Shown piece by piece: positions 9,252-14,078 of a stretch of DNA of 64,000 nt. The notes under the pieces are model-generated. The model was not told the origin of the DNA. It saw nothing but the letters and a program-made list of their open reading frames with translations, and did no database searches. The stretch comes from Escherichia coli. Lineage in GTDB: Bacteria; Pseudomonadota; Gammaproteobacteria; Enterobacterales; Enterobacteriaceae. The position numbers and the translations under genes are program-made. The stretch lies in the NCBI RefSeq assembly GCF_013315695.1, contig NZ_CP054353.1; one strand, given 5' to 3'. Within the stretch, counting starts at the first letter, position 1. Each line of letters starts with the position of its first letter.

Positions 9252-9914
9252 TTAAATCTCGTCAGGTGTACGCAGGTTGGTTACGGCAATGCGTTCACCG
9301 CGCTTGCGTTCGCGCTCTGATTGCATATTGGCGCGATAAACGCCCTGATCGCCAACCACCCAGGAGAGCGGACGACGTTCTTTGCCGATAGATTCCTGCA
9401 ACAGCATCAGTGCCTGCATGTACGCTTCAGGACGCGGCGGGCAGCCCGGGATATACACATCAACCGGGATGAATTTATCAACGCCCTGCACAACGGAATA
9501 AATATCGTACATACCGCCAGAGTTGGCACAGGCACCCATTGAGATAACCCATTTGGGTTCCAGCATCTGGTCATACAGACGCTGAATAACCGGTGCCATT
9601 TTGGTAAAGCAGGTTCCTGCCACCACCATCAGGTCAGCCTGACGCGGCGAAGCACGCAATACTTCTGCGCCAAAACGCGCCACGTCATGCACCGCGGTAA
9701 ACGAAGTCACCATCTCAACGTAACAGCAGGAAAGACCGAAGTTATACGGCCAAATTGAGTTTTTACGACCCCAGTTAACCATGTCATTGAGCTTGCCCAT
9801 AAACACGTTTTTGTTAACTTCTTGCTCCAGAGGGTCGGTTACGATCTCCTGCTTTTGCAGGGGGTAACGGTCGTTCTCACCGTTGGGATCTATGCGGGTG
9901 AGCGTATAATCCAT
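9252..9914 (-). CDS. nuoB: NADH:quinone oxidoreductase subunit B
   Basis: 220-aa [18 protein letters not shown]... with CCxxE/GCPP Fe-S cluster motifs. Confidence 0.95.
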
Positions 9915-9929
9915 CTTAATGCCTCGCGG

Positions 9930-10373
9930 TTAGCGTTGACGATTAGCGATACTGTTCGTTTCCGGGTTCATACGCTCGCGGCGTGAACGCGCGGGCGTCC
10001 AGTCCAGCGCGCCAATACGCACCAGATAAACCAGACCTGCCAGTAACACAAAAATAAAAATTGCAGCTTCCACAAAGCCTACCCAGCCGCTTTCGCGGAT
10101 AGAGGTTGACCATGCGAACAGATACAGCGCTTCAACGTCGAAGATAACGAAGAACATGGCCACCAGATAAAACTTGGCGGACAGGCGTAAGCGGGCGGAG
10201 CCGACCGAGTCGATACCGGATTCAAACGGAACGTTTTTCGACCTTGCGCGTGCGCGACCGCCTAAAAACCAACCGCCTACCAGCATCAGGCAACACAGGC
10301 CAATGGCAACGATAAGAAAGATAGCGAATGCCCAGTGATGAGCGATGACTTCAGTGGATGTTGACATACTCAT
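9930..10373 (-). CDS. nuoA: NADH:quinone oxidoreductase subunit A
   Basis: 147-aa membrane [23 protein letters not shown]...; first gene of operon. Confidence 0.95.
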
Positions 10374-10860
10374 TGCTTACTCATCAAAAGTAGCGCCAGA
10401 TTCACTGCTCTTCACGGCAGATGGACGCCACATCGATTCATGGGGAGGAATAAAAAAAACCTTACAATCACTGTAGAAATTCTTTTATACAGCTAATTGA
10501 TGTGGTCTTTTACTCCTTTCTATAACCTTTTGTCAACTTTAACAAAAGTTTCTTCACATTAGTTTACATAATATCAACACCATTAGCATTTAATGCCCTT
10601 TCACCCCAGATCCTTGACGACTCCAGGATAATTAGATGTTGTTGAATCGTGTCCGTTGTGAAGCAATGGAAAAAATACGGGTCTATTTTGACAGGAATTT
10701 GTGTCGATTCCTCCCCCCAAAAGAGAGTATTTTCTTGATCTGTGACACGCTTTTGTCATTCCATAACAAAAACGCAGCAACAAATTTACGTATTTTTTAA
10801 CATCATTGTAGCAGGTGATTTTTTTCAGGCGATTATTTGTGCGTTCAGGACGTGAATCTC
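10374..10860 (-). promoter_or_regulatory. nuo operon promoter / upstream regulatory region (AT-rich, A-tracts)
   Basis: ~490-bp non-coding AT-rich region immediately upstream of nuoA; the nuo promoter region is known to be long and multiply regulated; individual sites not mapped here. Confidence 0.6.
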
Positions 10861-10918
10861 TGGTGATTGAAAAATGAACAGTTTTGTGCGTTCTGCACGA
10901 TACGAGGAAGGCTTTTTA

Positions 10919-10967
10919 CTAAAAAAAAGCCGCTGGGGTTTAAAATCCCTCCAGCGGCTCGTTTTTA
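10919..10967 (-). terminator. Intrinsic terminator downstream of lrhA (hairpin flanked by A/T runs; potentially bidirectional)
   Basis: aaaaaaaa-GCCGCTGG...CCAGCGGC-tcgttttt; on minus strand the hairpin is followed by a run of 8 T. Confidence 0.7.
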
Positions 10968-11002
10968 CACTATTGTTCCAGGAATTATCTATCGTCCGTC
11001 GA

Positions 11003-12860
<1,858 letters not shown>

Positions 12861-14078
12861 ATGTCCCCCATTGAAAAATCCAGCAAATTAGAGAATGTCT
12901 GTTACGACATCCGTGGTCCGGTGCTGAAAGAAGCAAAACGCCTGGAAGAAGAAGGTAACAAGGTACTGAAACTGAACATCGGCAACCCTGCCCCGTTCGG
13001 TTTTGACGCGCCAGATGAAATCCTCGTTGACGTGATTCGCAACCTGCCTACCGCTCAAGGGTATTGCGATTCCAAAGGGCTTTACTCCGCGCGTAAAGCC
13101 ATCATGCAGCACTACCAGGCTCGTGGCATGCGTGATGTTACCGTGGAAGATATTTACATCGGCAATGGTGTATCGGAGCTTATCGTTCAGGCAATGCAGG
13201 CATTGCTGAACAGCGGGGACGAAATGTTGGTTCCTGCACCTGATTACCCACTATGGACCGCGGCGGTTTCGCTCTCCAGCGGTAAAGCGGTGCATTATCT
13301 TTGCGATGAATCCTCTGACTGGTTCCCGGACCTTGATGATATTCGCGCTAAAATTACGCCTCGTACGCGTGGGATCGTTATTATCAACCCAAATAACCCA
13401 ACCGGCGCGGTATATTCCAAAGAGCTTTTAATGGAGATAGTGGAGATTGCACGTCAGCATAATCTCATTATCTTCGCCGATGAAATTTATGACAAAATTC
13501 TCTACGACGACGCTGAGCATCACTCAATTGCGCCGCTGGCACCTGATCTGCTGACCATTACCTTTAACGGACTGTCGAAAACGTACCGCGTTGCTGGCTT
13601 CCGTCAGGGGTGGATGGTGTTGAACGGGCCGAAAAAACACGCCAAAGGTTACATCGAAGGTCTGGAAATGCTGGCTTCAATGCGCCTGTGTGCTAACGTT
13701 CCTGCGCAACACGCCATTCAGACCGCGCTGGGCGGTTATCAGAGCATCAGTGAATTTATTACCCCTGGCGGTCGTCTTTATGAGCAGCGTAACCGCGCAT
13801 GGGAATTGATCAATGATATTCCGGGCGTTTCCTGCGTGAAACCGCGCGGTGCGCTGTACATGTTCCCGAAAATCGACGCCAAACGCTTTAACATTCACGA
13901 CGATCAGAAAATGGTGCTGGATTTCCTGTTGCAGGAAAAAGTTCTGTTGGTGCAAGGGACGGCATTCAACTGGCCGTGGCCGGATCACTTCCGCATTGTC
14001 ACGCTACCGCGTGTCGATGATATCGAGCTGTCTTTGAGCAAGTTCGCGCGTTTCCTTTCTGGTTATCATCAGCTGTAA
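12861..14078 (+). CDS. alaA: Glutamate-pyruvate aminotransferase AlaA (YfbQ), PLP-dependent
   Basis: 405-aa ORF MSPIEKSSKLENVCYDIRGPVLKEAKRLEEEGNKVLKLNIGNP...; class I aminotransferase features. Confidence 0.93.
   Translation: MSPIEKSSKLENVCYDIRGPVLKEAKRLEEEGNKVLKLNIGNPAPFGFDAPDEILVDVIRNLPTAQGYCDSKGLYSARKAIMQHYQARGMRDVTVEDIYIGNGVSELIVQAMQALLNSGDEMLVPAPDYPLWTAAVSLSSGKAVHYLCDESSDWFPDLDDIRAKITPRTRGIVIINPNNPTGAVYSKELLMEIVEIARQHNLIIFADEIYDKILYDDAEHHSIAPLAPDLLTITFNGLSKTYRVAGFRQGWMVLNGPKKHAKGYIEGLEMLASMRLCANVPAQHAIQTALGGYQSISEFITPGGRLYEQRNRAWELINDIPGVSCVKPRGALYMFPKIDAKRFNIHDDQKMVLDFLLQEKVLLVQGTAFNWPWPDHFRIVTLPRVDDIELSLSKFARFLSGYHQL

Follow-up and report, generated by a model that had tools for sequence, protein, structure and literature searches.

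A conserved terminator-like hairpin, a fixed-length spacer and the nuo control region in the lrhA-nuoA interval of Escherichia coli

Results

The lrhA-nuoA intergenic region

The locus studied here is the lrhA-nuoA intergenic region of Escherichia coli. It occupies 629 bp at positions 10374-11002 of the window, by which we mean the whole stretch of 64,000 nucleotides that was analysed. The flanking genes are co-directional, both on the minus strand, and carry the names nuoA and lrhA in RefSeq, in an identical E. coli region as well as in MG1655. The genes at and around the interval are as follows.

9252-9914, minus strand: nuoB (open reading frame list)
9930-10373, minus strand: nuoA coding sequence (open reading frame list, RefSeq annotation)
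11003-11941, minus strand: lrhA coding sequence, a LysR-type regulator, stop codon at 11003-11005 (open reading frame list, RefSeq annotation)
Plus strand of the window: alaA (open reading frame list)

The 629-bp interval is present in a single copy in 5,423 of the 5,426 complete E. coli genomes (median of one place per genome), and several E. coli chromosomes are 100% identical to the window across 10374-11002. No annotated feature was found inside the interval in the 42 genome rows that were inspected out of the 5,423 matching E. coli genomes. The same locus in K-12 MG1655 (NC_000913.3, 2405073-2405702) has the same gene order, is 98-99% identical and measures 630 bp instead of 629. About 13 substitutions and one indel separate the two alleles, nearly all of them within about 170 nt past the lrhA stop, and the 460 bp adjoining nuoA are the same in both save one base. 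Because of this near-identity, the promoter, transcription start sites (TSS), RyhB site and Term-seq ends that were mapped in K-12 transfer directly to the window.

To place the interval in a broader context, we used a comparative set consisting of the lrhA locus from 80 Enterobacteriaceae species. The order lrhA to nuoA is kept in every relative with a long enough flank, and the intergenic length lies between 619 and 640 bp in 68 of the 73 sequences.

The sequence-only reading had described the DNA upstream of nuoA as AT-rich with multiple A-tracts, and both descriptions hold. The GC content at 10374-10921 is 38.0%, compared to 51.9% in the window, 52.9% in nuoA and 49.7% in lrhA. The same stretch contains seven A/T runs of at least five nucleotides, where shuffled sequences contain 2.2 +/- 1.4 (P ~0.004), and 17 runs of at least four against 6.9 in the shuffles. 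The upstream length of about 490 bp was too short an estimate, as 548 bp lie between the nuoA ATG and the A8 run of the hairpin described below. Two open reading frames in this part of the window had been doubted, and rightly so: both are spurious, without a Pfam match and broken in relatives. The 65-codon frame on the minus strand (10825-11022) has a stop or truncation in other E. coli alleles, and among 60 related loci, 53 carry stops within the 152-codon antisense frame on the plus strand (10867-11325).

A stable hairpin downstream of lrhA is kept by compensatory changes

Two features directly follow the lrhA coding sequence.

10967-11002, minus strand: lrhA 3' UTR ahead of the hairpin; contains 10972/10973, the equivalent of the K-12 lrhA 3' end at 2405672/3
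10921-10966, minus strand: intrinsic-terminator-like element, with A5 at 10966-10962, stem-loop at 10958-10929 and U8 at 10928-10921 (sequence, fold, covariation)

The hairpin lies where it had been placed by the sequence-only reading. On the plus strand, the A8 run (10921-10928) is followed by the arm GCCGCTGG (10929-10936), an interior of 14 nt that adds two more G-C pairs, the arm CCAGCGGC (10951-10958), the trinucleotide TCG and the T5 run (10962-10966). RNA in the lrhA sense, transcribed towards lower coordinates, therefore reads A5, stem-loop, U8. The stem begins 45 nt past the lrhA stop codon in the same orientation, and the U8 run directly abuts the final stem base at 10929. The description of the hairpin as strong is borne out by its predicted fold of -22.9 kcal/mol (10922-10967, minus strand). 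Shuffled sequences reached -9.2 +/- 2.4 kcal/mol (z -5.65), and none of 200 was as stable.

In the window allele, an A-C mismatch occupies the ninth stem position, where K-12 has a G-C pair. A simple consensus scan for terminators did not call the lrhA hairpin, since this inner mismatch lengthens the loop beyond its rule, and the nuo promoter was missed as well. We rejected these misses as evidence of absence, as their cause lies in the scan rules, which demand a loop of at most 8 nt and a T at the last -10 position. The only Rfam match in 9800-12900 at E <= 1 was AaHKsRNA41, whose 18 bits fall far short of the gathering score of 97, and we consider this a chance match to a terminator-like stretch.

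In most of the 72 species compared, a hairpin with A-run and T-run flanks starts 37-45 nt past the lrhA stop. Its stem sequences differ among species and include GCCGCTGG, GCCACTGA, GCCACTCG and GGCCGTTGG. In an alignment of 59 Enterobacteriaceae sequences, 89.1% of cells conform to the proposed pairing, a share that drops to 45-61% on sliding the 3' partners by one to three columns. Eleven of the 13 core pairs are altered on both sides. The covariation score of 0.42 compares with 0.08-0.16 for the slid versions and was reached by none of 500 shuffles. In the same 59 sequences, hardly any variation affects the outer A:U pairs that join the A-run to the U-run, and the T-run is invariant or nearly so. 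Identity to the window is 62% for the terminator element (72 species) and 31% across species for the 3' UTR ahead of it (10967-11002). Comparative evidence for a predicted structured element at the 3' end of lrhA could hardly be better.

Given these compensatory changes in position-matched hairpins of 59 sequences, a stability far outside that of shuffles (z -5.65) and a region that is single-copy (median of one place per E. coli genome), a chance inverted repeat or a dispersed REP-like repeat without a role in transcription is extremely improbable. The absence of a Term-seq end at the hairpin, discussed below, is the one observation that would favour it, and nothing else does.

All sequence hallmarks of an intrinsic lrhA terminator, as proposed earlier, are present. 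Like canonical intrinsic terminators that carry an upstream A-tract, the element lies shortly past a stop codon, has 10-12 pairs in its GC-rich stem and continues straight from the stem into a U8 tail, with which an A-run on the 5' side of the stem is able to pair. The best reading of the lrhA hairpin and its U8 run is that of a predicted Rho-independent terminator.

A hairpin of this kind could also serve transcription in the other direction. The plus-strand RNA is itself stable (-20.7 kcal/mol, z -4.7), and both orientations look terminator-like, the flanks being A5/U8 in minus-strand RNA and A8/U5 in plus-strand RNA. The flanks are symmetric in most genera (AAAAAAGAGCC...GGCTCTTTTTTT). The hairpin might then act mainly in the opposite direction or both ways, halting antisense transcription from the nuo control region into lrhA. 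We regard this as very unlikely. Compared to bidirectional-looking terminators, the lrhA hairpin has co-directional flanking genes and no convergent gene, so there is no obvious client for a two-way role. The K-12 TSS table contains no plus-strand start between nuoA and alaA, and the K-12 Term-seq lists contain no plus-strand 3' end here. In addition, the plus-strand T-run of the window is just five nucleotides long and lies 3 nt off the stem. A terminator acting on lrhA transcripts remains our preferred reading.

Mapped RNA 3' ends around lrhA

Term-seq had been suggested as a check on termination at the hairpin. We consulted the curated MG1655 Term-seq lists, which cover three conditions and retain dominant ends only, 882-1175 per condition (PMC7815308). 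None of the listed K-12 ends falls in the U-tract, where one would be expected near 2405621-2405628, and in this the lrhA hairpin differs from canonical intrinsic terminators. Transcription of lrhA in K-12 is weak, accounting for 11 TSS reads where nuoA has 5,962. As the lists hold dominant ends only, an end at the terminator could fall below their threshold; the check yielded no supporting end, and its outcome is weak evidence against termination.

Two other ends are listed on the same strand. The 'primary' 3' end of lrhA is at 2405672/3 in LB at OD 2.0 and in minimal medium (PMC7815308). This corresponds to 10972/10973 in the window, 31 nt past the stop codon and 14 nt ahead of the stem. An orphan end at 2405297 was recorded in LB at OD 0.4 (PMC7815308). 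It corresponds to 10598, a position past the hairpin that precedes the nuo TSS by 97 nt, and thus reveals the presence of some RNA downstream of the hairpin. We found no significant structure before either end (-3.6 kcal/mol and z +0.8 ahead of the lrhA end), and both therefore look like processing products. The Term-seq data list no Rho-termination region for K-12 positions 2405100-2405699, and neither lrhA nor nuoA is mentioned in the supplements of TERMITe and SMRT-Cappable-seq. We note that the one consulted 3'-end map with lrhA data sets the end of lrhA just ahead of the terminator hairpin, despite the strong covariation of the latter.

Small RNAs derived from 3' UTRs have a single-stranded stretch that is followed by a terminator hairpin and a long U-tail. 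The lrhA 3' UTR has a similar layout, and the hairpin could be the 3' module of such a short RNA. Cleavage at about 10972, for example by RNase E, would release a fragment of roughly 50 nt (AGUGUAAAAA-hairpin-U8) of the Hfq-binding kind, together with an upstream lrhA fragment that Term-seq would have recorded. This would agree with the K-12 'primary' end, which two conditions place 14 nt ahead of the stem and which has no upstream structure that would make 10972 a termination or trimming stop. Moreover, the 10-15 nt directly 5' of the hairpin (GTGTAAAAA) are better conserved than the remaining 3' UTR. The conserved A-run is, however, equally explained by pairing with the U-tract, and E. coli itself deviates from the family consensus in the stretch 5' of the hairpin. 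Such an sRNA would also yield a 3' end in the U-tract, and none is listed. As the hairpin has no Rfam family match and we found no published sRNA for the lrhA 3' UTR, we consider an sRNA improbable.

Returning to the terminator reading, we infer that the hairpin terminates lrhA transcription in vivo, based on its sequence, fold and covariation. It would thereby prevent lrhA transcripts from entering the nuo control region, which is the insulating role that had been assigned to it.

A spacer of fixed length adjoins the probable terminator

Beyond the terminator element lies a spacer that contains one recurring motif.

10806-10920, no strand: spacer of about 115 bp, variable in sequence and fixed in length (conservation, spacing)
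10860-10872, minus strand: IHF-consensus-like motif WATCAANNNNTTR; the window copy TTTCAATCACCAG has three mismatches (ungapped stacking of 68 species)

Identity of the spacer to the window is 31% across species. Still, 127-129 bp separate the last stem base of the terminator from the first conserved block (TGTTAAAAA, 10802) in the 5-95% range of 73 species. In E. coli, the spacer includes a species-specific direct repeat of 17 nt (10836-10852 and 10883-10899). Stacking the spacers of 68 species without gaps revealed the motif AATCAa....tTa, which we take to be the IHF consensus WATCAANNNNTTR. At a single exact offset, 27 of the 68 species carry it with no more than one mismatch, where the background is 0.23 per offset; with up to two mismatches allowed, 55 of the 68 carry it within a few positions of that offset. 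The Escherichia copy (10872-10860) is degenerate. The fixed length of the spacer and the positioned IHF-like motif suggest that the nuo regulatory architecture probably reaches almost to the terminator. The proposal of a long nuo upstream region is thereby supported, on the strength of the spacer and the motif and not of A-tracts alone.

Conserved regulatory DNA and the nuo promoter

The remainder of the upstream region contains the following features.

10537-10805, minus strand: conserved nuo upstream regulatory DNA, about -36 to -304 from the TSS (conservation profile)
10802-10794, minus strand: near-invariant block TGTTAAAAA (run of at least 90% identity)
10758-10743, minus strand: near-invariant palindrome TGACA-N6-TGTCA (run of at least 90% identity)
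10742-10725, minus strand: near-invariant block CAGATCAAGAAAATACTC (run of at least 90% identity)
10656-10643, minus strand: near-invariant block ACGGACACGATTCA (run of at least 90% identity)
10507-10536, minus strand: nuo core sigma-70 promoter, with -35 TTGACA at 10536-10531, an 18-bp spacer and -10 TAAAAG at 10512-10507 (SELEX, TSS mapping)
10498-10501, minus strand: nuoA TSS, major at 10501 and minor at 10498 (K-12 TSS profiling transferred by alignment)

Across 72 species, identity at 10502-10805 is 72.5%, compared to 67.8% at the third codon positions of nuoA. This indicates that the control region is under stronger constraint than synonymous sites. The spacings between the conserved upstream blocks are constant to within 1-2 bp. 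The longest block with at least 90% conservation measures 39 nt (10546-10508) and spans the core promoter TTGACA-18-TAAAA.

The earlier suggestion to compare this region with mapped nuo promoters led to a clear match in K-12. Genomic SELEX identified TTGACA-18-TAAAAA as a constitutive RpoD promoter in the lrhA-nuoA spacer, with a peak of RpoD holoenzyme binding in vitro. K-12 TSS profiling placed starts at 2403222 (4218 reads, 128-nt 5' UTR) and 2403219 (1744 reads) of NC_000913.2. These lie behind TTGACA-18-TAAAA(A/G) and correspond to the starts at 10501 and 10498 in the window, 128 and 125 nt ahead of the nuoA ATG; the starts were measured in K-12, which differs from the window by one base here. 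That base is the last of the -10 element, at 10507. Compared to other genera, its G first looked like a unique variant, which we ruled out, as G is the majority allele in E. coli (4276 of 5423 genomes); K-12 and the other genera have A. A consensus promoter scan missed the nuo promoter because its rule demands T at this position.

The regulation of nuo had been called complex, and the published record agrees: reports describe control by NarL and FNR, action of Fis at multiple sites, action of Cra and action of CpxR. The closely packed conserved blocks that lie from about -300 up to the promoter fit docking sites for these reported regulators. As for the AT-rich stretch having been taken as nuo promoter DNA, a complex promoter does lie within it, but about 115 bp near the hairpin are unconserved and 128 nt are transcribed leader.

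Two conserved hairpins in the nuoA leader

The transcribed leader of nuoA contains two hairpins and the RyhB site.

10374-10501, minus strand: nuoA leader (5' UTR), 128 nt (TSS, fold)
10465-10499, minus strand: leader hairpin 1, then a U8 run at 10459-10452 (fold, covariation)
10383-10437, minus strand: leader hairpin 2, with its core stem-loop at 10431-10390 and UUUUGAU at 10389-10383 (fold, RNAalifold, Term-seq)
10365-10392 (approximate coordinates), minus strand: RyhB pairing region over the nuoA ribosome-binding site (RBS) and start codon (PMC6497325)

Identity of the leader (10374-10501) across species is 77%, versus roughly 68% at the third codon positions of nuoA. In leader hairpin 1, 77% of cells are paired and seven of the 11 pairs are changed on both sides. 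The K-12 Term-seq lists contain no 3' end at its U8 run. Leader hairpin 2 folds at -18.3 kcal/mol (z -2.4), is paired in 99-100% of cells with four pairs changed on both sides, and is identical to the RNAalifold consensus.

Two K-12 orphan 3' ends, at 2405086 and 2405082, were recorded in all three Term-seq conditions with scores of 124,622-475,924 (PMC7815308). Their Rho score is 0.82 ('No') and their intrinsic terminator score is 11.6, on a scale where anything higher than 3 is read as predicting an intrinsic terminator (PMC7815308). They correspond to 10387 and 10383 in the window, 14 and 10 nt ahead of the nuoA AUG, and fall at the UUUUGAU that follows leader hairpin 2. The main text of PMC7815308 does not mention nuoA, and we found no study of leader hairpin 2 in the literature. 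The hairpin is comparable to premature terminators that Term-seq has detected in 5' UTRs, such as the ispU leader with a score of 14.1 (PMC7815308), in being likewise Rho-independent. This likeness to catalogued 5'-UTR terminators and leader RNAs is a resemblance in possible mode of action, and leader hairpin 2 differs from the former in that its U-tract is short and overlaps the ribosome-binding region. We tentatively propose, as a possibility that we ourselves hold to be doubtful, that the core stem-loop (10431-10390) and its U-rich tail serve as a Rho-independent attenuator, or else that a stable leader RNA of 115-119 nt has its 3' end there. Alternatively, leader hairpin 2 may be only a barrier to trimming after cleavage.

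The 3' ends lie in the region where RyhB pairs with nuoA. This pairing involves 21 nt, including the RBS and the AUG, and was validated by compensatory mutations (PMC6497325). In our comparison, TAAGCAATG (10379-10371) is at least 90% conserved. The numbering used in PMC6497325 (G86/C87) implies that the +1 lies roughly 88 nt ahead of the AUG and so disagrees with the start mapped by TSS-seq.

Other elements were considered as well. The 5' end of the leader is complementary over 11 nt to the foot of hairpin 2, and reading the leader alignment revealed no compensatory changes there. An alternative, anti-terminator structure of the leader received no covariation support. A 10-nt perfect inverted repeat, GGGGAGGAAT/ATTCCTCCCC, was rejected as an RNA pairing, as its upstream arm varies without compensation. 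An upstream open reading frame in the leader (AUGAAUCGAUGUGGC...), nine codons long in E. coli and longer in Citrobacter, is preceded by no Shine-Dalgarno sequence and has a stop position that varies by genus; we conclude that it is not a gene.

Discussion

We consider it highly probable that the whole interval is composed of an lrhA terminator, a spacer, conserved regulatory DNA, a sigma-70 promoter and a structured nuoA leader. On the minus strand, these elements suggest the following order of events. lrhA ends at 11003 and is followed by a 44-nt AU-rich 3' UTR, the GC-rich stem-loop (10958-10929) and the U8 run (10928-10921). The hairpin would form in the exit channel of RNA polymerase, the weak rU:dA hybrid would melt and the transcript would be released, after which the same hairpin may shield the 3' end of the lrhA mRNA. 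Next comes the spacer of about 115 bp, whose sequence drifts while its length is held and in which the IHF-like motif appears fixed in most genera, and then some 300 bp of near-invariant blocks on which nuo regulators would dock. The sigma-70 promoter TTGACA-18-TAAAAG fires at 10501/10498, and the resulting 128-nt leader would fold into the two conserved hairpins, with the RyhB site covering the nuoA RBS and AUG.

The locus itself is already known, as it is the published nuoA-N promoter region next to an ordinary terminator. The main finding re-identifies a textbook E. coli locus and, as such, matters little. Beyond this, the compensatory changes seen in about 60 species make the lrhA terminator a clean example for comparative work. 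The nuo control region, from about -300 to +128, is conserved above synonymous sites, and the unconserved spacer beside the terminator holds its length to +/-1 bp.

Of all the elements described, only leader hairpin 2, at which 3' ends have been mapped, is possibly worth an experiment. If it is an attenuator, part of the control over complex I expression would lie in transcripts terminating early, 10-14 nt ahead of the nuoA start. There may then be an interplay with the binding of RyhB and Hfq at the same spot, and attenuation by hairpin 2 would add a layer of control after initiation to complex I expression.

Variation in the lrhA-nuoA intergenic region and the lrhA 3' end

Divergence of the lrhA-nuoA intergenic region (10374-11002) among E. 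coli genomes was unusually high, with 1043 genomes sharing only 90-95% identity with the allele of the window. Differences between E. coli alleles were concentrated at 10547-10629 and around both the intrinsic-terminator-like hairpin of lrhA and the spacer that adjoins it (10806-10920); the core promoter was invariant, as was most of the nuoA leader. The features of the lrhA-proximal part are as follows.

Features near the lrhA terminator
10972-10973, minus strand: equivalent of the 'primary' lrhA 3' end in K-12 Term-seq
10860-10872: motif resembling the IHF consensus (WATCAANNNNTTR), position fixed across species
10836-10852 and 10883-10899: 17-nt direct repeat (TTTGTGCGTTCAGGACG / TTTGTGCGTTCTGCACG) in the variable spacer, 47-bp spacing

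In K-12, the 'primary' lrhA 3' end lies 14 nt ahead of the terminator stem and not at the U-tract (PMC7815308). The region upstream of this end has no significant structure, and the end may represent a cleavage site. On the other side of lrhA, the lrhA-alaA intergenic region (11942-12860) is 919 bp long with 38% GC, falling to a minimum of 29% at 12300-12499, and its GC skew is strongly negative. According to K-12 data, lrhA has a 5' UTR of 371 nt, and several 3' ends on the lrhA strand (2406691, 2406927/33) map within this intergenic region.

The spacer beside the terminator shows only ~31% identity across genera. Nonetheless, its length is constant, at 127-129 bp over the 5-95% range of 73 species. 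With at most one mismatch allowed, the IHF-like motif was found at one offset in 27 of 68 species, while other offsets yielded 0.23 each; the Escherichia copy, TTTCAATCACCAG, has three mismatches. Conservation of the direct repeat was absent outside Escherichia.

The nuoA leader and core promoter

Features of the nuoA leader and promoter
10383-10437, minus strand: conserved hairpin of the nuoA leader with UUUUGAU directly 3' of it; the nuoA AUG lies 10-14 nt downstream
10442-10451 (ATTCCTCCCC, leader) and 10707-10716 (GGGGAGGAAT, ~210 bp upstream of the TSS): perfect 10-nt inverted repeat
10508-10546: 39-nt conserved block spanning the -35, the entire promoter spacer and most of the -10

Strong Rho-independent 3' ends in K-12 Term-seq coincide with the UUUUGAU after the leader hairpin, and their intrinsic terminator score is 11.6 (PMC7815308). 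The text of that study does not discuss them, and our literature search found no study of the hairpin and its 3' ends. The G86/C87 leader numbering used in work on RyhB (PMC6497325) implies a +1 ~88 nt upstream of the AUG, at ~10461 and directly past leader hairpin 1, whereas TSS profiling gives a 5' UTR of 128/125 nt starting at 10501/10498. This discrepancy may reflect two nuoA 5' ends or a processing site.

Both cores of the inverted repeat are highly conserved. RNA pairing between its arms is nevertheless unsupported, because the upstream arm varies without compensation.

In the window, the -10 hexamer of the nuo promoter is TAAAAG, with its last base, G, at 10507. The exact 53-mer around this G allele is common to 4276 of 5423 E. 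coli genomes; K-12 and nearly all other genera carry A at the equivalent position. Across 72 species, the adjoining 39-nt block is at least 90% conserved, which suggests that regulators bind over the nuo core promoter.
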